Assembly (NCBI GenBank): GCA_044226625.1
Contig: JBGAGQ010000023.1
Coordinates: forward strand, 1-64,000
DNA: 64,000 nt
Direction of reading: 5' to 3'
Origin: Thermoanaerobaculia bacterium
GTDB lineage: Bacteria; Acidobacteriota; Thermoanaerobaculia; Multivoradales; UBA5704
How positions within the stretch are numbered: position 1 is the stretch's first letter; the number at the start of each line of letters is the position of its first letter. A program made the translations under genes and the position numbers. A model generated the notes under the pieces. The model saw only the letters and a list, made by a program, of their open reading frames with translations. It ran no database searches and had not been told where the DNA came from. Shown here in pieces: positions 4,301-59,467 of the stretch.

Positions 4301-4723
4301 GCGGTGACTCTGGGGGACATCGCACGCATCCGGGCCGATCAAGGTGAGGTGGACGAAGCCCTGCAACTGCACCAGGAGAGGCTCTCCGTCTTCGAGGCCC
4401 TCGGCGATCTCGACGGCAAGGCGCATGTACTTTGGAGCGTGGCGCGGCTAGAGATTCGTCGCGGGGATTGGCGAGAAGCGTTTGATCACTTGGCCGAGGC
4501 GTATCAGCTCAACCTCAAGCTCGGGCGTCTCGATGGGATCTGTTTCGTCGGCTGGGACCTGGGCAGCTTGCTCTGCCGGGCGGGCGAAGTTTCCCAGGGG
4601 ATGGCGATTCTCGAGCGGAGCCGCGCGGGATTCGCGCAGCTTGGCCGGTCCAACCTCGTCGAGGCCGTCGAGAGTTTGATAGGTCAGTTTCGTCCGGAAA
4701 GCGATCCTGTCGAAGCACCTTAG
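1382..4723 (+). CDS. CHAT (caspase-like) protease + P-loop NTPase + TPR protein
   Basis: CHAT motifs 'VPWELL', 'VLHLSCHG' (His) and 'FLSACET' (Cys). 'FVGRR', Walker A-like '[10 protein letters not shown]' and Walker B 'LLVVDDFE'. C-terminal 40-aa TPR repeats. GGAGG RBS before the GTG. Confidence 0.85.
4192..4407 (+). repeat. Two near-identical 120-bp-period TPR-coding repeats
   Basis: GGGGGACATCGCACGCATCCGGG...AAGGTGAGGTGGACGAAGCCCTGCAACTGCACCAGGA occurs at about 4192 and again at about 4312. Confidence 0.9.
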
Positions 4724-4745
4724 GCTTCGAGCCCGAAATTTCCTT

Positions 4746-7331: not shown

Positions 7332-7336
7332 TCGCT

Positions 7337-7714
7337 TCACCGCCCCTCGAACAGCAGGCCAGCCCGCCGGCCCAGATTAAGGAGGTCGCCCAGCCGCTCG
7401 AGCTCGAGCTCGGCCACCTCACGGCCGAACGGAGTCAAGCGATAGTGACGGCGGCGCTCGTCGGAATTCGCGGCGACGTCCTTGGCGTCGAGCTCGACGA
7501 TCAACCCCTGCTCGAGCAGGCGATGGAGCGTCGTGTAGAGCGTGCCGGGGTTGAGCTTCGTGCGGCCGCCGGTCCGCTCGGCGACCTCCTGCATGATCGC
7601 GTAGCCGTGTCGGTCTCCCTCGGCGAGAGCGACCAGGATGTGGAACGTCGCACTGGGCAGCGGAAGCAGCGAGGCGGCGGTGGGATCGTCGGAGGTCTCG
7701 GTCGGCTCGGGCAT
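7337..7714 (-). CDS. PadR family transcriptional regulator
   Basis: '[21 protein letters not shown]...[11 protein letters not shown]...RRRHYRLT'. Lies directly upstream of the ADOP permease. Confidence 0.92.
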
Positions 7715-12966: not shown

Positions 12967-14934
12967 TCAGAACGCGGTTCGATCCGCGCGGCTGTCGATC
13001 CGTCCAGAAGGATTGGCGTAGAGCTTCGTCTGGCCGGTTTCGAGGTCGGTGACCTTGACCTTATATCCCTTCGGCGCGAGGCCGCCCAGATAAACCCAGA
13101 ACTTGCCGTTCGCCGCGCGGCCGTCCGTCATCGTCAGCACGACGAGGGGGATCTCCGGAGCGCTCGGAAAGGCGAACATGCCGCTTCGATCCGTACGGAG
13201 GATGGCGAGCGCCGGACGCGGGTTTGCTCCGGCGAGCAGCTCGGCGCGGAACCGGCCGCCGAGCAGGCAGAGCGCGCGGCTCGTGGGGACGCAAGGCTCG
13301 CCGAGCGCCGGGGCGGCCGCGGGCGCCGCCGCGCTATCGGCAGCGGATCCAAGAGGTTCTCCAAAAGTGGCCGAAATGCTCGGCAACGCGCCGAGGAAGC
13401 GCTGGCTCGCGAACCGCCCGGCCGGCTTGGCGAACGTGCGCACCATCCCGGTCGTCTTGTCCGTCACGCGAATGTCGAGCGCGGCGCCCGTCGTGGCGGA
13501 GAACGTCAGATCGCGCGCGCCGGGGCCGGAGAGAAGCACGGCGACTTCGTGATCGGCGACGTTGCGCAGACCGAACGTCGCGACGTTTCCCGCGAGCGGC
13601 AGAGGCTTTGCGGTGCCGCTCTGCGAGCCGTTTCGCCAGGCGATCTCGACGGCGTACCGTCCGTCGGGACCGAGGCAGGCGGCGTTGCCGCCCGGGAGGC
13701 AGGGGATGGTGAAGATCGCGCCGAACAGATCCGCGCTGCCCGGCACCGACGGATCGAAGCCGGACCAAGCCACTTGGAAGCTGGTCGCGCCGCGATCCGG
13801 GAGCGTGGCGCTCACGAACGACAGGCTCCCCTCCGAGAGCGGGAACGGCGCGGTCGCGGAAAGGCCCGTGCCATCGAACAGGCGGCCGACGATCTTGCCG
13901 TCGGGGCTCCGACCGAGAAGCAGGGCCCGGTCCGCGCTGTCGGTCCCGATCGCGGGGCGGCTCTGATTCGATCGTGGTACCCCGAGGGACTGCTCCGCCA
14001 CCACGGGCAAGCCGTCCGGTCCCAGACGGACGATCCGAGTCTCCCCCGGCTGGTCGGTCGCCCCAAGGCTGGTCCATGCGGCCCACCAGCCGCCGGAGGC
14101 TCGAGAGACGACCCGTACGTCGACCTTCTGTTGACCAGCCTGCTGCGGGCTGATTGGAAAGGCCTCGGACGTCGGGTGGCCAGCGGTGTTGAATCGGCGC
14201 CCGTAGATCCCGCCGTAGGTGGTGAAATCGGAGGACTGCGACCAAACCGCGAGCGCGGTCGAGTCGGCGGCGAAAGCGATGTCGGGCGTGGCCTGGAACC
14301 CCGTCTCGATGGCTGCCAGAGGAAAGGCGTCGGTAAACGGGGTGAGGGTCGAATCGTAGAAGCGGCCCATCACGAAGAAGAAGCCCGGAAAGCTGACATT
14401 CGACGAATACCAGACGACCGCCACGTTGCCGTTCGGCGCCACCGCCAAGCGCGGATCGGAGCTGTAGGCGAACTCGTCGTAGTCGAAGGCGACCTGAACC
14501 GGCGCGCCGACCGGACGCCCCAAGGCATCGAGGCGATGCAGCCGGATCGCGGTTTGGAGCGATGCCGGACTGTCGATCGGCTCGCGAGCCGATACGGCGA
14601 GGAATCCCCCGTCGGGAAGAGCGACCAGGTTGGCCTCGGACCCTAACGGATGCTCGACCTCCCCTCCCAGCCGCCGCCCCGCGGCGTCGAACCGGAGAGC
14701 TCGGTGGAAGCCCGTGGTTGTGCCGGCGCAGCCGCCACCCGACCAGAGGAGCAGAAAGGAGCCCCCGGGCTGAGCGGCGATCTCCGGAGTCGTCTCATAG
14801 CAAGGTGCCGGATCTCCCGCCGTGAACGAGCCGACCCGGTCGAGCTGGGCGTCGAGCGCGGGCGACGCGCAGAGCGATGTGGTGATCAGGAAAGCGAAGA
14901 TGGCCAAAAGCGATCCGTGGCGAGATGTGCGCAT
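12967..14934 (-). CDS. Secreted repeat protein, paralog 1 (duplicated C-terminal domain, ends DRTAF)
   Basis: Signal peptide. 'PxIAxxPxG...RFDAAG' repeats. Two 'C-x(7-8)-CL..RF' domains and 'DGRAANGKFWVYLGGL'. Confidence 0.85.
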   Translation of the reverse strand: MRTSRHGSLLAIFAFLITTSLCASPALDAQLDRVGSFTAGDPAPCYETTPEIAAQPGGSFLLLWSGGGCAGTTTGFHRALRFDAAGRRLGGEVEHPLGSEANLVALPDGGFLAVSAREPIDSPASLQTAIRLHRLDALGRPVGAPVQVAFDYDEFAYSSDPRLAVAPNGNVAVVWYSSNVSFPGFFFVMGRFYDSTLTPFTDAFPLAAIETGFQATPDIAFAADSTALAVWSQSSDFTTYGGIYGRRFNTAGHPTSEAFPISPQQAGQQKVDVRVVSRASGGWWAAWTSLGATDQPGETRIVRLGPDGLPVVAEQSLGVPRSNQSRPAIGTDSADRALLLGRSPDGKIVGRLFDGTGLSATAPFPLSEGSLSFVSATLPDRGATSFQVAWSGFDPSVPGSADLFGAIFTIPCLPGGNAACLGPDGRYAVEIAWRNGSQSGTAKPLPLAGNVATFGLRNVADHEVAVLLSGPGARDLTFSATTGAALDIRVTDKTTGMVRTFAKPAGRFASQRFLGALPSISATFGEPLGSAADSAAAPAAAPALGEPCVPTSRALCLLGGRFRAELLAGANPRPALAILRTDRSGMFAFPSAPEIPLVVLTMTDGRAANGKFWVYLGGLAPKGYKVKVTDLETGQTKLYANPSGRIDSRADRTAF

Positions 14935-14968
14935 ACCGAATCCTTTTCCATGGGGCTCGAGACAGCGG

Positions 14969-16924
14969 TCAGAAAGCGGTCCGATCCGCCCGGCTCTCCA
15001 GCCGGCCGACGGGGTTCGAATAGACCTTCTCCGCCCCGGTCGACAGGTCGGTGATCTTCACCTTGTAGGCCGCGCGCGAGAGGCCGCCCAGATAGACCCA
15101 GAACTTGCCGTTCGCCGCGCGGCCGTCCTTCATCGTCAGGACGACGAGAGGCGTTTCCGCCGCGCTCGGGAAAGCGAACGTACCGCTTCGATCGGTGCGG
15201 AGGATGGCGAGCGCCGGACGCGGGTTCGCTCCGGCGAGCAACTCGGCGCGGAACCGCCCGCCGAGCAGGCAGAGCGCGCGGCTCGTGGGGACGCAAAGTT
15301 CGCCGATCACCGGGGCGATCGCGGGCGTCGCGGCGGTTTCGGCGGCGGACGGGAGAGCTTCTCCGAAAGCCGACGAGGCGCTTGGTAATGCGTCGAGGAA
15401 GCGCTGACTGGCAAACCGCCCAGCCGGTTTGGTGAACGTGCTCACCATCCCGGTCGTCTTGTCCGTCACACGGATTTCGAGCTCCGCGCCGGTGGTGGCC
15501 GCGAAGGTCAGATCGCGCGCGCCGGAGCCTCCGAGGATCACGGTGACCTCGTGGTCGGCGACGTTGCGCAGGCCGAACGTCGCGGCGTTGCCGGCGAGCG
15601 GCAAAGGTTTCGCGGTGCCGCTCTGTGAGCCGTTTCGCCAGGCGACCTCGACGGCGAATCGTCCGTCGGGACCGAGGCAGGCGGCGTTCTTCCCTTCGAG
15701 ACAGGTAGGGGCGACGAGGGAACCGGCCAGGTGAAAGCCGGATTGGGGAAGGGAGCCGGCCCACGCGGCAAGGAATCCGGCGGTGCGGCCACTGGTGAGC
15801 GTCGGGTCGCGTACGGTCGCGGTCCCCGAGATTTCGATCAGGTTCGAGCTCTCGTTCCCTTCGTGGTCGAACATCCGTCCCACGGCCAACTCGTTGCGGC
15901 TTCCCAGGACGAGGAGCCGGCCCGCTTGATCGACGGCGGCGGAAAACGGAAAGGCCGCATGGAGGTCGGGCACCGGCCTCTCGGTACCGACGGGTCTGCC
16001 GTCTCCGTCCAGTCGAACGAAGCGAATCTCCTCCGTCGCGAGAAGAGGCGCGCGAAACGTCGGAGTAAGAATCCTGTGCGACCAGACCGCCCACCAGCCG
16101 CCCCCGGGACGAGCGATCAAGCGGGGCGAGAAGTCGCCGTGGCTCGGCTCCAGGGTGCTGATCGGAAAAGGCTCGGAAAGCGGTTGCCCGGTGACGGCGA
16201 ACCTGCGGCCGAAAATCTGGGTTTGCGACGGCGAGAGATATCGTCGCCAGGCAACCAACGCCGTGCCGTCCGGGGCGAAGGCAACCTCGGGATCGAATTC
16301 GCCGACTTGGCTCTCGGGGCTCGACAGATGAACTCCCTCGGCGATGGGGCGCAGGTTGGCGTCATAGAAGCTGGCTTTGAGTTTGCCCTGAAAGTCCGTG
16401 GAAGGAGTCGGGTCGAGCCAGACGACCGCGACAGCTCCGGCGGAGGAGACGGCGACGCGCGGCTGGAGATTGAGGGTGAAGGAGCTCGTGTCGTAAGCGA
16501 CGGCGATCGTCGCGCCGACTTGCCGACCGAGCCCGTCGAGACGATGCAGGCCGACTCCCTGGGGCGTGAGGGAAAAATCGAACCAACCGAGGGCGACGAA
16601 TCCGCCGTCCGGAAGCGCCGCGGTCTTTAGTTGGACCAAGTGCCCGAGCGAATTGGCCGGAGCGAGGGGCCGGCCCGCGGCGTCGAACCTCTGGGCGAGC
16701 CCTACATTGCAACCGAAGCAGGTCGCGCCTTTCGAAGTTAGGAGGTACGAGCCTCCTGGCTGGACCGCGAGATCCGGATCGAGGTCGTAGACGTGCGCGG
16801 ACCTCCCCGCGGTGAAGGAAAAGAGTCGTTCGATCTCCGCCGCGCCGAGGGGCGCGGCAAAGAACGAGGCGGCGATCAGGAAGCTGAGGGAGGCCGAAAG
16901 CCATTTGAGGCGAGATGTGCGCAT
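14969..16924 (-). CDS. Secreted repeat protein, paralog 2
   Basis: Same architecture as paralog 1. C-terminal region nearly identical to paralog 3. Confidence 0.85.
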   Translation of the reverse strand: MRTSRLKWLSASLSFLIAASFFAAPLGAAEIERLFSFTAGRSAHVYDLDPDLAVQPGGSYLLTSKGATCFGCNVGLAQRFDAAGRPLAPANSLGHLVQLKTAALPDGGFVALGWFDFSLTPQGVGLHRLDGLGRQVGATIAVAYDTSSFTLNLQPRVAVSSAGAVAVVWLDPTPSTDFQGKLKASFYDANLRPIAEGVHLSSPESQVGEFDPEVAFAPDGTALVAWRRYLSPSQTQIFGRRFAVTGQPLSEPFPISTLEPSHGDFSPRLIARPGGGWWAVWSHRILTPTFRAPLLATEEIRFVRLDGDGRPVGTERPVPDLHAAFPFSAAVDQAGRLLVLGSRNELAVGRMFDHEGNESSNLIEISGTATVRDPTLTSGRTAGFLAAWAGSLPQSGFHLAGSLVAPTCLEGKNAACLGPDGRFAVEVAWRNGSQSGTAKPLPLAGNAATFGLRNVADHEVTVILGGSGARDLTFAATTGAELEIRVTDKTTGMVSTFTKPAGRFASQRFLDALPSASSAFGEALPSAAETAATPAIAPVIGELCVPTSRALCLLGGRFRAELLAGANPRPALAILRTDRSGTFAFPSAAETPLVVLTMKDGRAANGKFWVYLGGLSRAAYKVKITDLSTGAEKVYSNPVGRLESRADRTAF

Positions 16925-16955
16925 GGTGATCCTTTACCGTGGGTTCGAGAAACGG

Positions 16956-18926
16956 TCAGAAAGCGGCTCGATCGGCGCGGCTCTCCAGCCGGCCGACGGG
17001 GTTCGAGTAGACCTTCTCCGCCCCGGTCGACAGGTCGGTGATCTTCACCTTGTAGGCCGCGCGCGAGAGGCCGCCCAGATAGACCCAGAACTTGCCGTTC
17101 GCCGCGCGGCCGTCCGTCATCGTCAAGACGACGAGAGGCGTTTCCGCCGCACTCGGGAAGGCAAACGTGCCGCTTCGATCGGTGCGGAGGATCGCGAGCG
17201 CCGGACGCGGGTTCGCTCCGGCGAGCAGCTCGGCGCGGAACCGCCCGCCGAGCAGGCAGAGCGCGCGGCTCGTGGGGACGCAAGGCTCGCCCAGCGCCGG
17301 GGCGATGGCGGGCGTCGCCGCACCTTCGGCGGCGGATGGGGAAGCCTCTCCGAAAGCGGACGAGGCGCTCGGTATGGCGTCGAGGAAGCGTTGACTGGCG
17401 AACCGCCCAGCCGGTTTGGTGAACGTGCCCACCCTCCCGGTCGTCTTGTCCGTCACACGGATTTCGAGCTCCGCGCCGGTGGTGGCCGCGAAGGTCAGAT
17501 CGCGCGCGCCGGGGCCGGAGAGGATCACGGTGACCTCGTGATCGGCGACGTTACGAAGACCAAACGTCGCGGCGTTGCCGGCGAGCGGCAACGGTTTCGC
17601 GGTGCCGCTCTGTGAGCCATTTCGCCAGGCGGCCTCGACCGCGTACCGTCCGTCGGCACCGAGGCAGACGGCGCTCTTGCCTTCGAGACAGGTGGGGGCG
17701 ACATACGTTCCGGTAAGAGGCGTCGGCGACTGCTGCGGCGATAGGGCCCAAGAGGCCAGGAAACCGGTGGGGAGACTTTGGCCGAGGACCGGATCGAATG
17801 CGGCCGAGCCATCAGAGAGGGGAATCCGTTCGGAGACCGCGTTGCCGTCGCGATCGAAGAGTCGACCGACGATCGCATTGCCGTTGATTCCAGCCACGAG
17901 AAGTCGACCTCTCCCGTCGACCGCGGCGGAAAAAGGCGCGAACGGGTCGAGGTCGGCCACCGCCTGCTCGCTGCCGACCGGCTTCCCGTCGGCGTCGAGC
18001 CGAACCAGACGAACTTCACCTATCGCGGCGAGAGGCGTGCGGATCGGCGGAGGGGAAAAGCCCCGGACCGACCAGATCGCCCACCAACCGCCCTCGGGTC
18101 GAGCCACGAGGCGGGGCTGGTCCTGCTCTCGATTCGGTTCGGCTACGCTGATCGGAAAGGGCTCCGACAGGGGATGGCCGGTCGAATCGAAGCGTCGTCC
18201 GAACATCTGCGACGCGAACGGCCCGACGAAACGCATCCAAGTGACGAGCGCCGTGCCGTCCGTGGCGAAGGCGACCTCGGGACGGTATTCGCCGCCGACT
18301 GGGATCTCGGGCACCGACAACTCAACGCTTTCCGCGATCGGTCGCAGGTTGGCGTCGTAGAAGCTGCCCTTGAGGCCTTCGGCAGTCGTGAACTGGGTCG
18401 TGTCGTCCCAGACGACAGCGACCGTGCCGGTGGGAGAGACGGCGATCCGGGGATCGAGGTTGAGGGTAACGAAGCTCGTGTCGATCGCGACGACGATGGG
18501 ATCGCCGATGGGGCGGCCGAACGCGTTGAGCCGGTGGAGGCCGATTCCTGAAAGAACGTCGGGAGAGCGCAGCGAAAGGTCGAACGCCGTGACAGCGACG
18601 AATCCTCCGTCCGGCAAAGCCGCCAACCCGAGGTGACCGCCTTGCCAGAGCGAGTTGGATGGGGCGATCGGTCGGCCCGCGGCATCGAATCGCTGCGTAC
18701 GGACCGAATCGCACCCGACGCAACTGGTGGCCTGCGACGCCAGAAGAAAAGAGCCTCCCGGCTGGATGGCGATAGCCGGACCGTAGTCTCGGAGGCTTGC
18801 GGGATTGCCGGCCCCGAAGGAGAAGATGCGGTCGACTCCCGCCGCGTCGGCGGGTGATGCGAAAAGCGAGGCGGCGCTCAGGAAAACGAGGGCGTTCGAA
18901 AGCGATCTGTTGCGGAACGTGCGCAT
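16956..18926 (-). CDS. Secreted repeat protein, paralog 3
   Basis: Same architecture. Ends ADRAAF. Confidence 0.85.
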   Translation of the reverse strand: MRTFRNRSLSNALVFLSAASLFASPADAAGVDRIFSFGAGNPASLRDYGPAIAIQPGGSFLLASQATSCVGCDSVRTQRFDAAGRPIAPSNSLWQGGHLGLAALPDGGFVAVTAFDLSLRSPDVLSGIGLHRLNAFGRPIGDPIVVAIDTSFVTLNLDPRIAVSPTGTVAVVWDDTTQFTTAEGLKGSFYDANLRPIAESVELSVPEIPVGGEYRPEVAFATDGTALVTWMRFVGPFASQMFGRRFDSTGHPLSEPFPISVAEPNREQDQPRLVARPEGGWWAIWSVRGFSPPPIRTPLAAIGEVRLVRLDADGKPVGSEQAVADLDPFAPFSAAVDGRGRLLVAGINGNAIVGRLFDRDGNAVSERIPLSDGSAAFDPVLGQSLPTGFLASWALSPQQSPTPLTGTYVAPTCLEGKSAVCLGADGRYAVEAAWRNGSQSGTAKPLPLAGNAATFGLRNVADHEVTVILSGPGARDLTFAATTGAELEIRVTDKTTGRVGTFTKPAGRFASQRFLDAIPSASSAFGEASPSAAEGAATPAIAPALGEPCVPTSRALCLLGGRFRAELLAGANPRPALAILRTDRSGTFAFPSAAETPLVVLTMTDGRAANGKFWVYLGGLSRAAYKVKITDLSTGAEKVYSNPVGRLESRADRAAF

Positions 18927-18959
18927 GAGGGGTTCATTCCATGTTCCTAAGAACGGCGA

Positions 18960-21035
18960 TTAGAAAGCGGTCCGATCTAACCGGCTCTCGAGCCGGCCGA
19001 CGGGGTTCGAATAGAGCCTCACCGCCCCGTTCGTTAAGTCGGTGATCTTCACTTTGTAGGCACCCGAGGCGAGACCGCCCAGCTGGACCCAGAACTTGCC
19101 GTTCGTCGCCCGGCCGTCGACCATCGATAGGAGGACGACGGGAGACTCGGGAGCCCTGCCGAGAGCCAACCCGCCGCTCCTGTCGGTGCGCGAGAGGGCC
19201 GAGGTCGGCCGGGGATCCTGCTCCGCCAGTAGCTCGGCCCGGAATCGGCCGCCGAGCAGGCAGAGCGCGCCGCTGGTCGGGACGCACGCTTCACCCACCG
19301 TCGCGACAGGGGGGACCGGGTCGATCGCGGAGAAAACCTCGGCGGTCGCCTCCCGCTCGCCCGCGACCGGAGGAGGGAACCCACCGTCGAGCGCGGCGGT
19401 CGGCAGGGCGTTCACGATCCGCCGGCTCTCGAAGCGTCCCGCGGCTTTGGCGAAGGTGCGCAGCATTCCGCTCGTCCGGTCGGTGACCCGAATCTCGAGC
19501 GCGAGGTTGGTGGTCGCGGCGAAGGTAAGGTTCTTCCCCCCGGGGCCGGCGAGAAGCACCGTGACGTCGTGGTCGGCCGTGTTCCTGATTCCGAACGTCG
19601 CGACGTTGCCCGAAAGCGGCAGCGCCTTCGCCGTGCCGCTGCCAGCGGCCGATCGCCAGACGACCTCCACCCGGTAGCGCCCGCCCAGGCCTAGACACGC
19701 TGCGCTGGGCCCCCCGATGCATGGGGGCGACAGAAGCGACCCGGAGAGGTCCGTGCCTGCGACCCCTGCGGAGGTTAGGGACCAGGTCGCCGGGATCGCG
19801 CCGGACGATCGATCGGGCAACGCGGGGAGAGCGGCCGTCTGCGGAGCGGGCCCGGAGAGCCGGACGCGGTCCGAAGCCGGCAGGCCGGCGGAATCGAACC
19901 ACCGGCCAGCGACCGCTCCGGATTTTTCGCCGACCAGCACCAGCAGATTGCCCGCGGCCTCCCCGCCGAGCGCGAAAGATTCGATCGCGTCGGAATCGAC
20001 GAAGGGCTGTTCGCTTCCCATCGAGGCACCGTTCGTTGCCAGGCGTTCGATCCGGACCTCGGAGATCGGCGGTGGGCCGGCGGGAAGCCCCTGCTGGCTT
20101 TTCCACCCCACCCACCAGCCGTCGGCGCCGCGCCGTACGACCCGCGGCTCGACGTTGATCCGAAACCGCTCGGACCGGCTGATCGGAAACGCCGGCGACA
20201 GCGCGACGCCGCTGGAGCTGAATCGACGGCCGACGACCTGGTACTCGTTCGTGTCGACGAAGTGTGCCCAGACCGCGAGCGCCGTGCCGTCGCTCTGGAT
20301 CGCGACGTCCGGATCGGTTTCGCCGAACGGAGGCGCGGCGAGCGGCGATAGGGCGAGGGCGTCGGTCAAGGGGCGGAACGCCACATCGAAGAACCGGCCG
20401 CGCGGGATCCCCGCGGAATCCCGCCAGACCACGATCACCGAACCGTTGGGCGCGACGGCGAGGCGGGGTTGGGTATTGGGGTTGAGGTCGTTGGGGTCGA
20501 TCGCGACGACGGTCGCTCCTCCCTTCGGCCGCCCGAACGCGTCGAGCCGGTGGAGACCGATCCCCGCGGGACCTTGGGGGCGCAGGGACGACTCGAATTC
20601 GGAGACCGCCGCGAACCCACCATCGGGCAAGGGAACGGTCCGCGGCTGAGCTCCGTCCCAGAGCTCGATGGCGGGGGCTGCCGGCCGTCCCACGGCGTCG
20701 AAACGCTGGGCGCGGATCCTGCGCGTCGCCCCGTTCGGACAGCCGCTCCGCTGCCAGATCAGGAGGAACGAGCCGCCCGGCTGGACCGCGACGTCGGGAG
20801 CCCGGTCGGCGCAGGGCGCCGGATCGCCGGCCGAGAGCGGGGCGATCCGGTCGATGTCGACGCCGAAGGCGGGCCAAGCGGCGAGCGTCATCGAGAGGGT
20901 GAGAGCGCGGCGCAGCGCGCCCGCCGTTGCGCTATGGAGGGGAAGCGCCCTCGGAGGCGTCACACGCCGGCTCGCCGGCGGCTCGATGCCGCCGCGTTGG
21001 AGTCTCTCTTCGATCGACATCTCTTCGGACGGCAT
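18960..21035 (-). CDS. Secreted repeat protein, paralog 4 (start uncertain)
   Basis: Same architecture. Ends LDRTAF. Confidence 0.8.
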   Translation of the reverse strand: MPSEEMSIEERLQRGGIEPPASRRVTPPRALPLHSATAGALRRALTLSMTLAAWPAFGVDIDRIAPLSAGDPAPCADRAPDVAVQPGGSFLLIWQRSGCPNGATRRIRAQRFDAVGRPAAPAIELWDGAQPRTVPLPDGGFAAVSEFESSLRPQGPAGIGLHRLDAFGRPKGGATVVAIDPNDLNPNTQPRLAVAPNGSVIVVWRDSAGIPRGRFFDVAFRPLTDALALSPLAAPPFGETDPDVAIQSDGTALAVWAHFVDTNEYQVVGRRFSSSGVALSPAFPISRSERFRINVEPRVVRRGADGWWVGWKSQQGLPAGPPPISEVRIERLATNGASMGSEQPFVDSDAIESFALGGEAAGNLLVLVGEKSGAVAGRWFDSAGLPASDRVRLSGPAPQTAALPALPDRSSGAIPATWSLTSAGVAGTDLSGSLLSPPCIGGPSAACLGLGGRYRVEVVWRSAAGSGTAKALPLSGNVATFGIRNTADHDVTVLLAGPGGKNLTFAATTNLALEIRVTDRTSGMLRTFAKAAGRFESRRIVNALPTAALDGGFPPPVAGEREATAEVFSAIDPVPPVATVGEACVPTSGALCLLGGRFRAELLAEQDPRPTSALSRTDRSGGLALGRAPESPVVLLSMVDGRATNGKFWVQLGGLASGAYKVKITDLTNGAVRLYSNPVGRLESRLDRTAF

Positions 21036-21080
21036 GACACCCTTTCTTCGGACTCTTTTGAGCTCCAATCCCTCAGTGGG

Positions 21081-22628
21081 TCACCGGACCGCCGACGCGG
21101 CGGCGAACGCCGCCCCCGCCGGATCGAGCGCGTCGAACGCCCGCGACCAATACGGCGTGGGCACCGGCCCATAATGGCCGATCCCCGGCACCTCGACGTA
21201 CGCCGTGTGGGCGAACCCTTCTCGCTCGAAGGCGTGGAGAACCTCGCGGGTCTGGACCCGATTGAAATCGCGCTCGGCGGTGAGGAAGACGTAGCGATTG
21301 CGGCTCTTGGCGAGGTCGAGGTCGTGCTTCGCCGGCTTGGGATAGAGCGCGGGCCAATTGGTCCCCGGCCGGTCGGGGATCGGCAGCGGTCGAAACCAGT
21401 CGCATCCGACCATCATCAAACCACCTCGAAAGACCTCCGGATAGGCGACCGAAAGGACGCTCGAGACCCGGCCGCCTCCCGAGTAGCCGGCGATGTAGAT
21501 CCGCTCCGGATCGATCGTGTAGAGCTTCGCAGCGGCGTGCGCGGCGTCGAGCGCGAGCGCGAAGCGGTACCAGCGCGGGCGCTCGTTGCCGGCGTCGTTG
21601 GCGCCGACCCAGATCAGCCGGCGGCGCGCCATGTCCGCGAGAAGGTCGGGGCGCGAGGCGCCGCCGATCGGGCTCGGGCTCACCCAGATGATCAAGCCGT
21701 GCGCGACGCTCGGTGAATAGCTTTCCGGCACGACGAAGCTGAAGCTCTCCCGCGCGAGGTCGTAGCGCCCGCGGTTCGGATCGGCGTCCAGCTCCTTGCG
21801 TGCGATTCCGGTACGGCGGGCGAGCTCCGAGAGGTCGGATCGAGGGCTCCTCTCGGCGAGGCGGGCGGTGATGATCCCGGTGCGATGCGGGCTCGCTACC
21901 GTGAGGACGGGCGCGGCTTCGCGGTTCGGGGTCGCTGGAGGGGACGCTGGAGCGGCTTCGGGGCCGGATTCGGATCCGCCGCCCGCGGCGTCCGCCATCA
22001 ATAGCTCCAGCAGGCGGGCCGACTCCGCGTCGTTACGGTCGGCCGCGATCGCTCGTTCGAGGGCGGCGATCGCCTCGGCGCGGTTCCCCTCTTCGAACCA
22101 GGCGCGGGCGATCGCGCGCAGGACGGGAGCTTGGCCGTCCGGCGGCAGCTCCGGCAGGGCGCGCTGCCACAAGGCACGCGCCTCCGCCCGCTTCCCTTCG
22201 GCGAGTCTCCGGTTTCCCTCGTCGATCCAGCCGCGCACGACCGACCGATCGGTCTCGTGCGCCCCGGCCGCGATCGAGGCAAGCGGGCGGAGCTCGAAGT
22301 GAAGCTGCGGCCCGGGCCCGTCCTCCGGCACCTGGGCTTGCCCCTCGGCGCGAAGGTATCCCTCCGCGTCCACCGTCGCAAACCAGGTCCCGGCGCCGAG
22401 GCCGAGCGCGGACCAGCGGCCGCGCGCGTCGCTCTCGGTCGTCGGTCCGGGACCGTCAGGGCGCTCGAAGTGGAGCGCGACGCGGGCCTTCTCGATCGGA
22501 CGGGAGCCGGCGTCGGATACCTGCCCCGAAAGCCGGCCGACTCCGGTCCACGACTGGGCCGGAGTCGCCTGGGGCAGGAGGAGCAGCCCGGCGAGCAACG
22601 ACAGTCGGGCGGCCGAACGGGGCTGCAA
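21081..22628 (-). CDS. Secreted carboxypeptidase-regulatory-like + TPR + alpha/beta-hydrolase protein
   Basis: Signal peptide. 'LSGQVSD...ESDARGRW' beta-sandwich and TPR-like helices. Nucleophile 'IYIAGYSGGG' and 'PGIGH'. Confidence 0.75.
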   Translation of the reverse strand: MQPRSAARLSLLAGLLLLPQATPAQSWTGVGRLSGQVSDAGSRPIEKARVALHFERPDGPGPTTESDARGRWSALGLGAGTWFATVDAEGYLRAEGQAQVPEDGPGPQLHFELRPLASIAAGAHETDRSVVRGWIDEGNRRLAEGKRAEARALWQRALPELPPDGQAPVLRAIARAWFEEGNRAEAIAALERAIAADRNDAESARLLELLMADAAGGGSESGPEAAPASPPATPNREAAPVLTVASPHRTGIITARLAERSPRSDLSELARRTGIARKELDADPNRGRYDLARESFSFVVPESYSPSVAHGLIIWVSPSPIGGASRPDLLADMARRRLIWVGANDAGNERPRWYRFALALDAAHAAAKLYTIDPERIYIAGYSGGGRVSSVLSVAYPEVFRGGLMMVGCDWFRPLPIPDRPGTNWPALYPKPAKHDLDLAKSRNRYVFLTAERDFNRVQTREVLHAFEREGFAHTAYVEVPGIGHYGPVPTPYWSRAFDALDPAGAAFAAASAVR

Positions 22629-22640
22629 CGATCCTTCTCC

Positions 22641-24578
22641 TTAGAAAGCCTGCCGGTCGATCCGAGTGGTGGGGTGGCCCGCGAGCTGGTGGTAGACCTT
22701 GATTTTTCCGGTTTGGGTGTCGGTGACCTTGACCCGATAGGCCGCGTCCGAGAGCCCGCTCAAGGAGACCCAGAACTTGCCGTTGCTCGTGCGTCCGTCG
22801 ACCAGCCCGACGACGAGGCCGAGGCCGCCGTAGCGTTCGTCGAATCGAAACGTCGCCCGCTTGTCGTCGAACAGAGCGCCGCGAGACTTCTGTTTCGTCC
22901 CGTCCGGCAGTGTCCAGTTGACGTCGACGCGGAAGCGACCGCCGAAGAGGTCGATCGGCAAAGCCATCGCCGCGGCCGCGGGGCTTTCGGCGAGCGGCTC
23001 GGTCTCGGCGGTCGCCGCCGTGCGTGCCGCGTTGCTAGCGATTCCGAGCCGGCCGCTCGCGAAGGCCCCGGGCGGTTTCGTGGCCGTGGCGGTCGCGCCG
23101 GTCGCGCGATCGATCAGCCGGATCGTGATGCCCACGCTGGTGGCCGCCGCGTAGGTCAGGTCCAGGTTGGGCTCACCCCCGAACCGCAACCGAACCGCCA
23201 CCTCGGGTGCCCGCGCGCCGAACGCGAAGAGCGCGCCCGTGGCGTCCAGGACGATCGGCCGCGCGTGCTCGATCGAGCCGCCGGCGCCGGTGCGCGAAAT
23301 CTCGACGCCGATCTGGTCCCCGAGAAGGCACGCGGCGTGTTGCGACACGGGGCAGCTCGGACGGAACGTCCGTCCGCTGATGTCCATTTCCTCCGGGTCC
23401 GGGAGGTCGCTTTCTTCGTTCACTCGCTCTGCCTTCGTCCAGGCCGCGACGAGGGTGCCGGTGGAGGAACGAGAGATCGCTGGAGCGTCGAACACCCACA
23501 CCGGTTTCGGCGCCACCTCGAACGGTTCGGTGAGGGCGGCGCCGTTGGGATCGAACCGTCGGGCGACGAGAGGGGCTTCGAGCGGTTGGACGAGCACCAG
23601 GACGTTGCCTCCCGGGTCGAGCCCCAGGTTTACCGCGGTGCTGTCGAGCCGGGGAGCGCCGCCGACGTAGGTGCCCGAAATCTGGCCGCTTTCCACGCCC
23701 TGCGCGGGAAGGTGGGCGAAGACCGAGCCCACCTCGAAGCCGAGTCTGCGCTCCCAGGTGAGCGACCATCCGCCATACGGGCTCCCGCCGATCAGGCGGG
23801 GGTTGAGATTGTCGCCGAAGCCGGGCACGGTGATGAGGAACGGCGGGCCTGCGGGCGAGCCGTCGGCCGGATAGCGACGGCCGAAGATCGGCGTAAAGGC
23901 GTAGGGGAATTCGGCGACGCTGCGAGCCCAAACGACCAGCAGATCGCCGCGATGGTCGAACGCGAGATCGGGCGCCTCGAAGGCATTCGGGAGATCCTCG
24001 AGCGGAATCGGTGCGGAGGCCGGCGTGAGGTCGGCGTTGAATCGCCGGAGCATGATTTCCTGGCGGTACGGCTGCTGCAGCTCTCGGATCCAGGTGATCG
24101 CGAAATTCCCCTCACCGCTGACCGCGAGCCGGTGCCGAAGCTTCTTGCTCGGGTCGGTCTCGCCTGCGTCGACGGACCTCGGCGAACCGAGCTGCCACCC
24201 CCGGGCGTCGAGGCGGACGAGCTCGAGGTCGGAGCTGAAGGCGGACCGCGAACGGGTCCAAGCGATCGCGAAGCCGCCGTCGGGAAGGGCGATGAGAGCG
24301 GGCGACCGGCCCGTCCCGAGGTCGAGCTCCGCTCCGATCGGTCGGACCTCGGCGTCGTAGAGCTGACCGACGAGCCGCGTTTCGAACCCCTCGCAGACGC
24401 GGTTCCATACGAGCAGAAAACTGCCGCCCCGCGAAACGGCGACGTCCGGCGCGATGTCGTCGCAGTCGACCGATCCGGCCGCGAAGGTGCCGATCGAGAA
24501 GTCTTGCGCGGGGAGCGCGGCGGGGGCGAGGCTGGCGGCACCTAACAGGATCGTGGCAAGCCCAAGGATCGAGCGCAT
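22641..24578 (-). CDS. Secreted repeat protein, paralog 5
   Basis: Same architecture but more divergent. GAGGAGG RBS. Ends IDRQAF. Confidence 0.85.
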   Translation of the reverse strand: MRSILGLATILLGAASLAPAALPAQDFSIGTFAAGSVDCDDIAPDVAVSRGGSFLLVWNRVCEGFETRLVGQLYDAEVRPIGAELDLGTGRSPALIALPDGGFAIAWTRSRSAFSSDLELVRLDARGWQLGSPRSVDAGETDPSKKLRHRLAVSGEGNFAITWIRELQQPYRQEIMLRRFNADLTPASAPIPLEDLPNAFEAPDLAFDHRGDLLVVWARSVAEFPYAFTPIFGRRYPADGSPAGPPFLITVPGFGDNLNPRLIGGSPYGGWSLTWERRLGFEVGSVFAHLPAQGVESGQISGTYVGGAPRLDSTAVNLGLDPGGNVLVLVQPLEAPLVARRFDPNGAALTEPFEVAPKPVWVFDAPAISRSSTGTLVAAWTKAERVNEESDLPDPEEMDISGRTFRPSCPVSQHAACLLGDQIGVEISRTGAGGSIEHARPIVLDATGALFAFGARAPEVAVRLRFGGEPNLDLTYAAATSVGITIRLIDRATGATATATKPPGAFASGRLGIASNAARTAATAETEPLAESPAAAAMALPIDLFGGRFRVDVNWTLPDGTKQKSRGALFDDKRATFRFDERYGGLGLVVGLVDGRTSNGKFWVSLSGLSDAAYRVKVTDTQTGKIKVYHQLAGHPTTRIDRQAF

Positions 24579-24671
24579 CGAAACCTCCTCAGAATGGACT
24601 TTTGGAGGAAAGGCGCAATCGCCGTTGGAAGGGGGCCAGCTCCGTCTCGACCGCCATCTCGGCTATGGGTC

Positions 24672-26600
24672 TCAGAACGCCTGCCGGTCGGCGCGGCTTT
24701 GGCGCTGGCCGGCCGCGTTCGAATAGGTCCGCGAAGCGCCCGTGGTCACGTCGGTCACCTCGACGTGGAACGAGGCGTCGCTGAGGCCGCCGACGTAGAC
24801 CCAGATCTTGCCGTTCTTCGACCGTCCGTCCACGACGGAAAGCGCGGCGCCGCCGGCCGCGCCGGGCAGATCGAAGTAGACCTGGCGATCGGCGTAGGCA
24901 AGCACCTGGGCCGCGCGCTCGACGCCGTCGGCCCCGGTGGAGAAGGCGGAGACTCGGAACCGCCCGTCGAACAGGCACCCGGAGGTCGCCGAAGGAGCGC
25001 AGGTCCCCGTCGGCGGTGGGGCCTCCGGGAGGATCGCGTCCGTCACCGCGGCCGCGGGGAGCGGCGCGCTCGTCGGGGCAGGCAATGCGAGATGACCGCT
25101 CCGGAACGGGCCGCGCGGTTTCTGGGCGACGAGCGTCGCCCCCCCCTCGGTCCAGCGGATCTCGACCTCGGCGTTGGTGGTGGCCGCCCAGTCGATCGCA
25201 CCCCCAAGAAGGTCGACGGCGACGTCGAACCGCCCCGGGTTCTCGAGCGCGAAGAGGAGATGCCTGCCGAGCCGGAGGCCGCGACCGGTCCCGGCGAGCG
25301 CGCCGAGCTTCCACCGGACCTCCACTTGGGCTTGAACGGGGGACTGCACGTCGCCGAGGCGAGCGCAGAGCGCGGCGGGGTTCGGACAGGACGCGGCGAG
25401 CGTCGCGCCGCGGAGGTCCCATCCCGCCTGCGCGACCGGAGGCGGCGGATAGTAGTCGACGTCTCCCTCCCAGATCGCGGTGAAGCCGGACGGGGAGGCC
25501 GGCGCCAGGTCGACGCGCCCGAGCGGACGCGGATCGGGACCCGCGGTGCGCAGGAGGTTCGAGGCGGCGGCGCCGCTCGGTTCGAACAGCCGCGTCGTAA
25601 CGCTTCCATCGGCGGCTCGTCCGGCGACCAGAACGAGGGCGTCCGGATCGAGCGCGACGACCGGTTCGGCGAAGTTGCCGATCAGCCCGACGTCGATTCG
25701 CGGACCCGCGAGCCCGCCATCCGGTCCGAGGGCGCGCAGGAAAGTCTTGGTGACGACCGACTGCCCTCCCTCGCTCTCCTCCCACACCATCCACCAGCCG
25801 CCGCCGCGCCGGGGTGCCAACCGGGGATTGGCCGCGAAAAGGCCGCCGCCGCTCACGTCGACGGCACTGCCGACCTGAATTCCCGAGGCATCGAAACGGC
25901 GGGCCGCGACGTTGCCGAGCGCGAGGACGGCGATCGCGCGCCCCTCCTCGTCGAACGAAACGTCGAGATCGTCGAGGAGGCCCGCGTAGCCGAGCTCGAA
26001 CGACGAACCGGCCGGCTGGGCGTTCGCATCGAGCAAGCGGCCAGCGGCCAGGAGCTGGCTGATCGGGATCGGAATCGGCGTGAGGAAGACGTAGCGCCAG
26101 GCGGCGAACAGCCGGCCGTCAGGCGCCACGCTCAGCCGGGGGGCGCTGTAGTCGACCCTCGTGCTCTCGGTCGTCTCATCAAGCCGGACCGCGGCGCCCA
26201 GCGGGAGCCCCGTCGAGGCGAGCCGCCGCGCGTGCACGGTGAACAGCCCCCGTTCCCGGTCTTCGAGCAGGTAGGCGAGGGCGAAGCCGCGATCGGGAAG
26301 GGGTACGACCTGGGGAAGCAACCCTTCGCCGAGGTCGATCGGCGCTCCGAGCTTGCGGCCGAGAGCGTCGAGCCGCTGCGCGCGAAGGAGAGTAGGGAAA
26401 TAGCAGCGCTGCCAGACCGCGAGGAACGAGCCGTCGGGCTGCGCGGCGATCTTCGGCGCGACGTCGTCGCAGGCGTCGTCGCCTAGGGCGAACGAGGTGC
26501 GGCGGGCGACCTCGAGGGCGGAGGCCGGCGGCGCGGTCCAAGAGGTCGCGCAAAGCAGGAGGACGGCGACGAACGGCAGAAGGGCGCGGCGGCTCGGCAT
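24672..26600 (-). CDS. Secreted repeat protein, paralog 6
   Basis: Same architecture. AGGAG RBS before MPSRRALLP. Ends ADRQAF. Confidence 0.8.
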   Translation of the reverse strand: MPSRRALLPFVAVLLLCATSWTAPPASALEVARRTSFALGDDACDDVAPKIAAQPDGSFLAVWQRCYFPTLLRAQRLDALGRKLGAPIDLGEGLLPQVVPLPDRGFALAYLLEDRERGLFTVHARRLASTGLPLGAAVRLDETTESTRVDYSAPRLSVAPDGRLFAAWRYVFLTPIPIPISQLLAAGRLLDANAQPAGSSFELGYAGLLDDLDVSFDEEGRAIAVLALGNVAARRFDASGIQVGSAVDVSGGGLFAANPRLAPRRGGGWWMVWEESEGGQSVVTKTFLRALGPDGGLAGPRIDVGLIGNFAEPVVALDPDALVLVAGRAADGSVTTRLFEPSGAAASNLLRTAGPDPRPLGRVDLAPASPSGFTAIWEGDVDYYPPPPVAQAGWDLRGATLAASCPNPAALCARLGDVQSPVQAQVEVRWKLGALAGTGRGLRLGRHLLFALENPGRFDVAVDLLGGAIDWAATTNAEVEIRWTEGGATLVAQKPRGPFRSGHLALPAPTSAPLPAAAVTDAILPEAPPPTGTCAPSATSGCLFDGRFRVSAFSTGADGVERAAQVLAYADRQVYFDLPGAAGGAALSVVDGRSKNGKIWVYVGGLSDASFHVEVTDVTTGASRTYSNAAGQRQSRADRQAF

Positions 26601-26728
26601 GGGAGCTCTCCTGGGCGACATGTTGTTACAGCATATCAAGGAGCGAGCGTATCGCGCGACAAGGGCCGTCGCTATCGAATTCTTGCGCGGCGAGGGCACC
26701 CGGGGAGGGGGGAGAGCCAAAACGAAAC

Positions 26729-26755
26729 CGGGCGGCCGTTTCGAACGGCCGCCCG
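26729..26755 (-). terminator. Rho-independent terminator of csbD
   Basis: CGGGCGGCCGTT-TCG-AACGGCCGCCCG stem, followed on the minus strand by GTTTCGTTTT. Confidence 0.8.
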
Positions 26756-26784
26756 ACGGAGGGAGAAGGTTACTTCGGAAGCGG

Positions 26785-41856: not shown

Positions 41857-41948
41857 GGCGGATGCTCTCCCTGACGAATCGGGTCAGGGAAGCATACGCA
41901 AGGGGAAGGGGGAGGTTTAGGAAGAGTCCCTGTACCCGACGTTTCTTC

Positions 41949-46847: not shown

Positions 46848-46946
46848 ACGAGATTCTCCCCTCCTGTTTGGAGCTTGCGAAAGCTGAGGGAGGGTACCAC
46901 GAAGGCCGCCCCCTCCGGCCGTCGCGCAAGCGGCTTACGAACCGCC

Positions 46947-54219: not shown

Positions 54220-54237
54220 GGAGGTCGCGCGCTCCTT

Positions 54238-54296
54238 ATTACACGGGCTCTTTTTGCCCGGGTGATATTGACTCCATGTTTCACCCGGGTAATACT
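54238..54296 (+). promoter_or_regulatory. Sigma-70-like promoter overlapped by CCCGGG-centred palindromic operators
   Basis: TTGACT (54268) and TAATAC (54290). Boxes ATTACACGGGCTCT, TTTGCCCGGGTGAT and TTCACCCGGGTAAT. Confidence 0.65.
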
Positions 54297-54351
54297 CCGC
54301 CGTCGATCGATCCCGAGGTTCCGTTCCGGGCTCGATTCCTGGGAGGAATCC

Positions 54352-59300: not shown

Positions 59301-59467
59301 AGGCCGGGTGCTTCGGTTTGGATCGAGGCTTCCGGGGGCACGAACTCGGGAAAGACGTCGAGCGGGGCGCGCCGCGCGACGCCCGTGCCGATCCACAGCC
59401 CGATGAGGGTGAGCGCGGCGACCGCACCTCGATAGCGCAGGCTCCATTCGACCAGACGGCCGCCCAC
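56357..59467 (-). CDS. CusA/CzcA-like RND efflux permease
   Basis: 'LDVFPEF', 'GVLVDDAIIDVENI' and 'ERLVPILMTA'. Confidence 0.92.
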   Translation of the reverse strand: MGGRLVEWSLRYRGAVAALTLIGLWIGTGVARRAPLDVFPEFVPPEASIQTEAPGLSPEQVERLVTGPVESAVNGAPGLTSIRSESIPGLSVVTLIFAEESDVQAARQGVAERLASLAGQLPAGISTPKVSPLVSSTMDLLKVGLVSSRVDAFELRDLADWTLKPRLLAVPGVARITVYGGSVRQIQILPDFERMAAYGLGLSDLAAAARGALALRGAGFVDLAAQRITISTPTPSPDPASLAETVVAVRSGAAIRLRDVARVALGEELKVGDANVQGQAGVLLSISGQYGANTLEATEGVEAALAEITPRLRAGGIDVYPALHRPANFIERALADLGGALGIGAFLIFAVLLLFLRDPRSALISFLTIPLSLLAAVAVLVHFGQTLNTMTLGGFAVALGVLVDDAIIDVENILRRLRENQALSTPHPRWTVIRDASLEIRGAVLFATLVVLIAFLPVLLASGVEGRFLRPLALAFALAVLASLGVAFTVTPALCALLLPEPKGQRSPRWLAGLARLHARVLALAELRFMGFVVALGMALAGAFVWLPSLGGELLPMFREGHFVLQISSRLPGTSLAEMTSLGARLSRELLELPYVATVEQQVGRAELGEDTWGPDRSELHLELKKSARIDETSVQERLREVVASYPGIRGEVLTFLGDRISESLTGETAQVAVLVLGDRLEDLDLAAEAVYRELARVPGVVDLQLKKASGTPTLSIALDPRALSTYGLRAEDVTDVISTAYAGQEVGETFDGARTVRAVLLLPADRRGRLDELSALWISSSSGRVPLSRVAAVSLAEGRASIQHEGGRRRVAVTFNVGGRPFDRVVAEAKARLAALRLPAGVELSFAGAAETEKAALRELLADTALAVALVLLILFLAFRRRTYPWLVLAGLPFCLIGSVLAVGLTGIGLSLGALVGLVTVFGIGARNSILLLAHFEHLVDREGAPWNRETLRRGAAERLVPILMTALVTALGLVPLALGLRRPGHEIEGPMAVAVLGGLATSTLLNLILMPEMAWRFGGAPRDGKTDGPTVLAP

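Follow-up and report, generated by a model that had tools for sequence, protein, structure and literature searches.

Long-bladed, seven-bladed beta-propellers are known from CylK, the Friedel-Crafts alkylating enzyme of cylindrocyclophane biosynthesis, whose C-terminal domain (PDB 7RON) has blades of ~55 aa, and secreted seven-bladed propellers are known from the Photorhabdus PLL/PHL, Chromobacterium CV39L, and Burkholderia BP39L lectins, which bind their ligands multivalently and without catalysis. According to the published account of CylK (PMC8916777), catalysis by this enzyme requires an N-terminal calcium-binding beta-roll domain that supplies Arg105 over the top face of the propeller. 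Modules that recur on many unrelated exported proteins include the C-terminal domain of the type IX secretion system (T9SS; TIGR04183), dockerin, the S-layer homology (SLH) domain, PPC/PKD-type extensions, and carbohydrate-binding modules (CBMs). Here we describe six co-oriented paralogous genes (A to F) that join a propeller head to a recurrent tail module; they lie in a 64,000-nt stretch of DNA, referred to below as the window (positions 1 to 64,000 of contig JBGAGQ010000023.1), from an uncultured soil or sludge bacterium of the acidobacterial class Thermoanaerobaculia. Acidobacteriota, Thermoanaerobaculia among them, are abundant members of soil, sediment, and sludge communities, and the organization of their exported proteins is little known.

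We interpret the six products as Sec-exported modular proteins in which the head would serve as a non-catalytic ligand-binding module, with a distinct specificity in each paralog, the likeliest target being a glycan or another polymer or surface ligand. The tail would be an autonomous extracytoplasmic binding or anchoring module that tethers or targets many exported proteins of Thermoanaerobaculia to a common partner, for example a receptor protein or a polymer of the cell envelope or matrix. Among the young copies A, B, and C, tails and leaders are held nearly identical by gene conversion, on heads that are old and diverged. We give the core of this interpretation, in which the heads bind without catalysing and sit on a shared tail module for binding or anchoring, roughly even chances of being correct.

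Fold and relatives of the propeller head

The six proteins align end to end, with identities to A of 55% for B, 56% for C, 49% for D, 33% for E, and 34% for F. A first-pass annotation of the sequence had described six co-oriented secreted paralogs with mostly short gaps, signal-like leaders, and two copies of a C-terminal domain, all of which was borne out. The head of B (residues 28-404) was modelled with AlphaFold2 (AF2) from an alignment of 36 family members. The obtained model, with a predicted local distance difference test (pLDDT) of 91.3 and a predicted template modeling score (pTM) of 0.91, contains 26 strands of at least three residues and two short ones, which make up seven four-stranded antiparallel blades around an axis; from the strand order, the N-terminal strand appears to close blade 7. 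The model and the loop mapping given below thus agree with the earlier description of propeller-like heads that vary in their loops on a shared module, with seven blades in place of the approximately six repeat units counted at that time.

The top matches of the head model in a VIA-align search of representative structures were seven-bladed propellers throughout (Z 25-36, over residues 1-377 of the model), and the Foldseek search gave the same picture. The best match by a clear margin was CylK (7ron_A; Z 36.0, root mean square deviation 2.9 A, 339 of 377 residues aligned, 13% identity; Foldseek template modeling (TM) score 0.70), followed by YncE (Z 30.1). Next, at Z 25-28, were WD40 proteins and the lectins from Photorhabdus and Chromobacterium, the lectin matches including 5c9o (Z 27.4), 6gxs (26.0), and 6gxr (25.6) with Foldseek TM scores of 0.55-0.60. 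Virginiamycin B lyase (Vgb), sialidases, and the propellers of glycoside hydrolases (GH) and polysaccharide lyases (PL) were also among the Foldseek and VIA-align matches.

At the sequence level, the blades share the motif P-x-[VI]-A ... [PD]-G-G-[FS] ... W ... G-R-R-F-D-x-x-G-x-P. No Pfam-A family matched the head or the tail of the six proteins at E<=1, and no NCBIfam model did so above its cut-off. Among PDB sequences, the 36-member head profile matched only hydrazine synthase beta (E 0.012), no relative at the sequence level having been solved, and it did not find CylK at E<=1. The sole named family with any head signal was NCBIfam NF053835 ("PDIAV motif-containing lipoprotein"); along the blade motif P-[DE]-[IV]-A-[VF], it was matched by 15 of the 36 members at E<=1 (best 1.9e-6). 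All scores lie far under the curated cut-off of 90 bits, those of the window proteins being ~11 bits. Its one weak match in the same genome lies in a 5196-aa open reading frame (ORF) and is uninformative.

Searches of the genome's own ORFs with hidden Markov models (HMMs) of the domains gave E-values of 1e-22 to 1e-141, far beyond chance. Eight further ORFs of this genome contain the same blade type and carry neither a tail nor a Pfam name for the propeller (Table 1). Two of these are adjacent on contig C35, and two also have FG-GAP-like repeats. Elsewhere, the blade type occurs in stand-alone propellers of ~400 aa and in double propellers, and in one protein (P0038) it is fused to ricin-type lectin domains and a tail. 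A 779-aa metagenomic protein (P0050) has an OmpR/PhoB-type Trans_reg_C domain at residues 51-125 and the propeller at residues 328-687, which forms its extracytoplasmic part; it looks like a one-component membrane sensor with the propeller as its ligand-binding part.

Variation among the heads

The 36-member alignment was laid on the strands of the head model of B. The A-B loops (mean entropy 1.49 bits, 3 inserted residues) and C-D loops (1.70 bits, 1 inserted residue) lie on one face of the propeller; they are its most conserved parts and, together with the strands, carry the structural motifs. The B-C loops (2.67 bits, 54 inserted residues) and D-A loops (2.49 bits, 19 inserted residues) lie on the opposite face, which is the usual ligand-binding face of propellers, and hold nearly all variation and insertions of the head. 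Ninety positions are conserved in at least 75% of the 36 members, none of them in the B-C loops and three in the D-A loops (Gly, Leu, and Ser), and all conserved polar residues of the head fall within the repeated blade motif. Conserved positions are thus nearly absent from the variable face, and therefore no catalytic-looking cluster is conserved there: neither a conserved polar position nor an active-site-like cluster was found on this face among the 36 members.

Rates of substitution were compared between the structural classes, with synonymous sites near saturation, which makes the selection tests weak. For orthologue pairs, the ratio of nonsynonymous to synonymous substitution rates (dN/dS) was 0.33-0.38 in the variable-face loops and 0.24-0.26 in the strands. 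Pooled parsimony counts over 9 or 18 copies from the genus gave 0.74-0.83 for the variable-face loops, 0.55-0.63 for the strands, and 0.48 for the other face.

The tail module, its passengers, and its distribution

The tail of B consists of residues 405-514 (D1) and 541-651 (D2), two diverged copies of one ~110-aa domain separated by an Ala/Pro/Ser linker that is disordered in the model; D1 copies are 20-27% identical to D2 of A and are homologous to it. The tail model (pLDDT 85.0) contains two all-beta domains, and its pTM of 0.80 hints that D1 and D2 pack together. Most copies open with a disulfide-type C-x6-7-C pair, which is absent from the second copy of E. In its canonical form the domain begins C-x7-LCL-x-GGRF-x-V-x-V-x-W ... 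DTGYFWFF, continues with N-x-ELVVKVLDGR-x-x-NG-x-FWVFYGALS-x-VEYTITVTDT-x-TG, and ends in Y-x-NP-x-G-x-LAS-x-ADT-x-AF, the whole unit occurring twice in tandem. The window tails are a diverged variant in which D1 lacks the aromatic motifs and D2 retains NGKFWV. Two copies had been described from the start; the ending DR[TAQ]AF terminates the second copy only. Because the internal first copy of canonical pairs likewise ends in ADTxAF, the terminal Phe is, on the evidence of these alignments, a feature of the tail domain or its fold and not a free-end signal. The tail also does not resemble the C-terminal signal of outer-membrane beta-barrels, given that AF occurs internally too, that the model is a soluble all-beta structure, and that no outer-membrane protein family matched.

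The suggestion that the tail is an undescribed module was upheld. The tail domain is covered by no Pfam or NCBIfam model, neither in the six proteins nor in a further 40 + 10 carriers, where these models detect passenger domains only; no PDB sequence matched the tail profile below E 1; and Foldseek gave no match to the tail model at E<=1e-3. In VIA-align against 48,161 chains, the best Z was 6.9 over 79 residues, which is at noise level, and four chains reached Z>=5; these resemblances, to accessory domains of the beta-sandwich type and to levivirus coats, are weak and were not used. For the tail, the ESM Atlas returned only unnamed Acidobacteriota clusters. We found no description of either the head or the tail module in the literature covered, which excludes subscription journals.

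A single-copy variant of the tail domain was observed in four other proteins of the genome (Table 1), found on LamG-like, esterase, and Calx-beta proteins. Its terminal sequence is ...AF-x-x-C-P (or ...F-K-T-C-S-L), and one more Cys lies inside the domain (D-x-C ... GK[FY]), a pattern that suggests a second disulfide pinning the C-terminus.

An HMM of the tail, as proposed in the first-pass annotation, was built from the twelve window copies and searched against 1.84 billion representatives of 50%-identity clusters. It matched 8617 clusters at E<=1e-3, of which 5727 reached E<=1e-10 and 1515 reached E<=1e-30, on many different exported passengers. Among 40 carriers scanned, the passengers included Laminin_G_3, Calx-beta, Sortilin/BNR propellers, Peptidase_M23, S8, sedolisin prodomain, lipase/alpha-beta hydrolase, GSDH, beta-helix, SBBP, ricin lectin, and PKD domains. 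A second search, which added cupredoxin, PPC, and Vgb-lyase propellers to the list, counted in the band of 168-536 aa alone 3763 proteins at E<=1e-10, all annotated as hypothetical or named after their passengers. Twelve tail ORFs are present in the genome itself: the six of the array, two with LamG-like domains, and one each with a Calx-beta domain, a glycosidase-like domain plus Ig, an esterase, and an unidentified passenger. A tail carrier of at least 876 aa on contig C55, with an unknown passenger, has one in-frame TAG that interrupts the second tail domain; this could be a pseudogene or a sequencing error. A tail-less subtilase of the window (Peptidase_S8 + PPC + K319L-like PKD) shows that the tail is not present on every large exported hydrolase of this genome.

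The position of the tail was surveyed in 146 representative carriers, 143 of which have exactly two tail copies. More than 100 aa follow the pair in 19 carriers; in 13 the pair is N-terminal, with a passenger of 104-672 aa behind it, and in 12 of these 13 a clear signal peptide immediately precedes it. The tail therefore works at either end of a protein and is not an obligate C-terminal signal. Together with the internal AF endings, these N-terminal pairs speak against taking the terminal Phe, with the first-pass annotation, as a sign of a dedicated sorting domain. Seventeen of 112 proteins from the second search look like a leader plus the pair only; the leaders of 16 of them (the exception being P0226) read like passenger pieces, which suggests mis-called starts or fragments, and stand-alone tails were dropped as an argument.

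The tail is concentrated in Thermoanaerobaculia: it was detected in 28 of 61 genomes of the class, with up to 76 scored matches in a single genome, and in 11 of 151 genomes of a phylum sample, five of them outside the class with 1-3 matches each; one unpublished genome (G004) counts as a positive in both samples. In a species-representative collection searched with a closer tail alignment, at least 608 tail loci were confirmed, and the best 80 of these all lie in metagenome-assembled genomes (MAGs) with titles of the Acidobacteriota group (Acidobacteriota, Thermoanaerobaculia, or "Holophagales").

Evolution of the array family

The head family was found at E<=1e-15 in 4 of 81 genomes of the order, all from the genus of the window (g1), with three copies in G041, at least four in G088, six in the window genome, and seven in G097. 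Head trees and tail trees agree in three deep subfamilies (E-type, F-type, and A-D-type), each of which extends across several genomes. At the syntenic place in G041, the array consists of orthologues of F (60% identity) and D (70%) and a single A-D-type copy, and the genes flanking the array are 80-94% identical between the two genomes. D and F have a dN/dS of 0.27-0.34 relative to their G041 orthologues (dS 0.6-1.1), compared with 0.06-0.12 for the flanking vWA and Zn-peptidase genes (dS 0.6-0.75).

The C-terminal part had been described as conserved and constant. For orthologue pairs, the tails are no more constrained than the heads (dN/dS 0.23-0.28 versus 0.26-0.29), and the constancy within A/B/C traces to gene conversion and not to stronger constraint. 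The dS between these copies is 0.15-0.47 in the tails and 0.90-1.37 in the heads, and their nucleotide identity, 0.45-0.57 in the head, steps up to 0.81-0.98 at a point that coincides exactly with the first Cys pair. At third codon positions, identity is ~0.3-0.5 on the head side of the same border, apart from an outlier of 0.67 in one window pair, and 0.62-1.0 on the tail side; the identity of the leader region is raised as well. Because of the low dS of the tails against the high dS of the heads and the sharp step at the domain border, we attribute the near-identity of the A/B/C tails to gene conversion or, equivalently, to recombination of old heads onto one young tail.

Which genes are embedded among the paralogs varies from genome to genome. 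The esterase gene is present in the window genome and at the same place in G097 (75% identity) and is not found in G041 or G088; G088 has a metallo-beta-lactamase (MBL)-fold hydrolase at the esterase place, and a RidA/YjgF-like gene is embedded in G041 and G097. One array copy of G097 is a 561-aa ORF in which the first tail domain alone is present and whose start is overlapped by the next ORF; it looks like a truncated or decaying gene, which fits birth-and-death evolution. The family evolves fast, and by birth and death within one genus.

Function of the head and tail modules

The head is the part for which an enzymatic role has to be weighed. The heads could be propeller-type enzymes (lyases, hydrolases, or alkyl-transferases), the array a set of isozymes, and the tail a CBM-like substrate binder, as might be expected from CylK as the best structural match, from the sialidases, GH and PL propellers, and Vgb among the other matches, from the frequent joining of tails to hydrolases, and from the esterase gene within the array in the window genome and G097. 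The active site of CylK, however, needs the Arg105 of its N-terminal calcium-binding domain, whereas here the propeller starts right after the leader; the identity to CylK is 13%, the variable face has no conserved polar residue, and no enzyme family was matched in Pfam, NCBIfam, or PDB sequences. We consider the enzyme explanation distinctly unlikely and favour heads that bind rather than catalyse because of the lack of a conserved polar cluster, the occurrence of the blade type in sensor and lectin contexts, and the missing partner domain of CylK. The array could also form an S-layer or another self-assembling surface lattice, or be a set of adhesins, with the tail as the assembly or anchoring unit. 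An S-layer had been among the earlier suggestions, and nothing was found that speaks for it; the general look of abundant exported all-beta paralogs with a shared C-terminal module is all that recommends a lattice. The family was found in one genus only, its copy number varies, one G097 copy lacks D2, the tail is common to enzymes and redox proteins, unlike lattice domains, and no S-layer family matched the six proteins, which makes this explanation very improbable.

For the tail, the competing view is a dedicated secretion or sorting domain similar to the T9SS C-terminal domain, recognized by an outer-membrane machinery and perhaps removed or covalently attached, with the six proteins as its cargo. 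Such a role would agree with the lineage restriction of the tail, its many copies per genome, the great diversity of its exported passengers, and its preference for the C-terminus, and conversion that keeps the array tails uniform is what would be expected if they had to fit one machine. The same census nonetheless contains the N-terminal pairs behind signal peptides and the carriers with long extensions behind the pair, and the internal first copy of canonical pairs has the same end as the second. Moreover, the pair of ~250 aa is far above the size of known sorting tags, neither Por_Secre_tail nor any NCBIfam sorting domain matched the six proteins or 10 canonical carriers at E<=1, the genome yielded a single marginal TIGR04183 match (27.1 bits), and no candidate machinery was found. 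A T9SS C-terminal sorting domain was accordingly rejected for lack of a family-model match and of an obligate C-terminal position, and we judge a sorting role in general to be unlikely, though with a probability that is not negligible. A binding or anchoring module is preferred over a secretion tag because the tail is independent of position, is large, and in most copies begins with a Cys pair.

Several observations weigh against binding heads on an anchoring tail. The nearest structure, CylK, is an enzyme, as are virginiamycin B lyase, the glycoside hydrolases, and the lyases among the fold matches, and therefore the fold alone does not favour binding over catalysis. The variable-face loops evolve faster than the strands and never faster than neutral: dN/dS is below 1 in every class, a nominal nonsynonymous excess (p<0.1) was found at 5 of 368 sites, four of them in strands, and neither the orthologue pairs nor the parsimony counts support diversifying selection. 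Within the power of these weak tests, the loop variation thus shows no excess over neutral divergence, which counts against diversifying selection behind the repertoire proposed in the first-pass annotation, and relaxed constraint may be a sufficient explanation of the loop variation. The C-terminus lies within five residues of the second tail copy in 122 of the 146 carriers, and 86 carriers end exactly in AF; so strong a C-terminal preference would also fit recognition of a free end. The location may be the periplasm or the surface, as a Sec leader alone takes a diderm protein only to the periplasm. The genes flanking and embedded in the array show no functional link to it, so that the context gives no hint. 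The architecture, the fold class of the head, the absence of a named family, the distribution, the fusion partners, the placing of the variation, and the conversion signal are observed; binding rather than catalysis, the class of ligand, the cellular location, and the anchoring role of the tail are what we infer.

Beyond the binding and anchoring roles preferred here, the tail could define a Thermoanaerobaculia-specific docking or anchoring system, equivalent in function to dockerin-cohesin, to SLH, or to the C-terminal domain of the T9SS, that would hold dozens of exoproteins per cell (proteases, lipases, glycosidases, cupredoxins, and lectins) on one envelope receptor or polymer. The array would then supply interchangeable binding heads, and conversion would keep their tails fitting the receptor. 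We put this forward tentatively, as a scenario that is conceivable and on balance doubtful. The tail is among the larger protein modules still without a name, and it occurs on many exported hydrolases, binding proteins, and redox proteins of the class; a name for it and the discovery of its partner would allow thousands of hypothetical proteins to be annotated and could reveal how Thermoanaerobaculia hold enzymes at the cell surface or in a matrix. The array is a natural example of heads that diverge on tails kept uniform by conversion and is tractable for studying the evolution of binding repertoires. Should the heads be no more than relaxed paralogs of a single binding protein, the finding is an ordinary lineage-specific expansion.

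Organization of the locus

The host genome (6.6 Mb, 133 contigs, 97.9% complete, 5.5% contamination) contains the window as C10:1-64000; the nearest named relatives are MAGs of Thermoanaerobaculia and Acidobacteriota. As called, the six ORFs code for 645-702 aa and span 12967-26720 on the minus strand (Table 1). The ORF of D was called up to a TTG at 21068 (702 aa) and that of F up to a TTG at 26720 (682 aa); the true starts are probably the GTG at 20963 and the ATG at 26600, the latter because a same-genus orthologue begins at the matching place. The genes form the tandem array originally described in so far as all six paralogs stand at one locus; the array is not continuous, since the esterase gene splits D from E. 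The intergenic gaps are 34 nt (A|B), 31 nt (B|C), 33 nt (C|D), and 93 nt (E|F), with an AAGGA-like motif in each of the first three. Upstream of the array, a strong terminator-like hairpin closes the CsbD-like gene and bounds the transcription unit or units of the array on that side, and no comparable site was found inside the array, which makes co-transcription plausible.

Judged by eye, the six leaders look Sec-type, with a basic start, a hydrophobic core, and a small-x-small end, and none contains a lipobox or a lipobox Cys. The leaders of D (20903-20926, LRRALTL) and F (26552-26590, SRRALLPF) have twin arginines before the hydrophobic core, which are absent from those of A, B, C, and E, and could be twin-arginine translocation (Tat)-like signals.

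The heads are matched by Logan contigs from run X1, possibly the source sample; with 0-2 differences, these contigs also extend across the junctions A|B, B|C, and C|D. No listed Logan piece spans a whole tail, so that the joining of heads to tails rests on the genome's own assembly. Short joints in the Logan contigs (side of 21-33 letters) look like noise from repeats or other organisms and were not interpreted.

The array is flanked by housekeeping genes (PabB-like, class IV aminotransferase, Zn peptidase, CsbD, and vWA). Elsewhere in the window there are two MacB-like ABC permeases (MacB_PCD + FtsX) and, near them, an AcrB-type resistance-nodulation-division (RND) pump and a MatE transporter.

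Table 1. Coordinates of the array, of other genes in the window, and of related ORFs on other contigs (positions without a contig prefix are those of the window)
Feature	Position	Strand	Description
Paralog A	12967-14934	-	655 aa; signal-like leader
A, head	13711-14853	-	Propeller
A, tail D1	13381-13710	-	
A, linker	13303-13380	-	
A, tail D2	12970-13302	-	
Paralog B	14969-16924	-	651 aa; copy used for modelling
B, leader	16844-16924	-	
B, head	15713-16843	-	Seven-bladed propeller
B, tail D1	15383-15712	-	
B, linker	15305-15382	-	Disordered, Ala/Pro/Ser
B, tail D2	14972-15304	-	
Paralog C	16956-18926	-	656 aa; nearest to B (heads 57%, tails 91-97% identical)
Paralog D	18960-20963	-	Likely 667 aa
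Embedded non-family gene	21081-22628	-	515 aa; exported CarboxypepD_reg + TPR + polyhydroxybutyrate (PHB)-depolymerase-like esterase; PHB-depolymerase/S9-like motif
Paralog E	22641-24578	-	645 aa; own deep subfamily
Paralog F	24672-26600	-	Likely 642 aa; third deep subfamily
Terminator-like hairpin	26727-26757	-	14 pairs, 10 G-C, T-rich tail
MacB-like permease	4720-7434	-	904 aa
MacB-like permease	39304-41883	-	859 aa
Subtilase	43881-46934	-	1017 aa
MatE transporter	54220-55728		
AcrB-type RND pump	56357-59467		
Tail-less blade-type ORFs (eight, L002-L009; this and the next six rows)	C35:18439-21539		Same genome
Tail-less blade-type ORFs, continued	C6:60473-62662		Same genome
Tail-less blade-type ORFs, continued	C126:41121-42398		Same genome
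Tail-less blade-type ORFs, continued	C24:1275-3284		Same genome
Tail-less blade-type ORFs, continued	C4:65957-67954		Same genome
Tail-less blade-type ORFs, continued	C68:26109-28184		Same genome
Tail-less blade-type ORFs, continued	C58:175340-176644		Same genome
Single-copy tail variant	C5:14638-15900		Same genome
Single-copy tail variant	C48:13021-14184		Same genome
Single-copy tail variant	C66:2270-3385		Same genome
Single-copy tail variant	C43:4675-5568		Same genome
Tail carrier with in-frame TAG	G000:C55:20247-22883		Same genome
Array copy with first tail domain only	L090 1677-3359 (G097:C70)		561-aa ORF

Comparison with described systems

Modular exported proteins that combine a propeller with C-terminal beta domains are known already. 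What is new at this locus is that both modules are nameless, along with the extent of the tail family, its concentration in one lineage, and the pattern of conversion across the head/tail border. CylK shares the seven long blades of the array heads and is their closest structural match; the array proteins lack its N-terminal calcium-binding domain, their propeller beginning at residue 28 and leaving no space for it, and CylK in turn has no tail pair. CylK also has calcium sites that bridge its blades, and conserved equivalents of Tyr473 and Asp440 are a mark of the CylK/BrtB enzymes. An identity of the array proteins with the CylK/BrtB alkylating enzymes was rejected on the ground of the missing N-terminal domain. 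The lectins of Photorhabdus, Chromobacterium, and Burkholderia are, like the array heads, seven-bladed and secreted; their Z scores are no better than those of WD40 proteins and there is no sequence relation, so that the likeness is one of working principle only. NF053835, on which we found no paper, shares the blade motif; membership of the array proteins was rejected, as they score far under the cut-off of this family and carry no lipoprotein signal.

The tail resembles the T9SS C-terminal domain, dockerin, SLH, the PPC/PKD-type extensions, and the CBMs in being one module on many unrelated exported proteins, typical of a lineage, mostly C-terminal, and often present in dozens of copies per genome. 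Dockerin is, like the tail, an internal duplication. The tail differs from all of these modules in showing no sequence match to them, in its larger size (two ~110-aa domains), in the Cys pair of most copies, and in its occurrence at the N-terminus as well.

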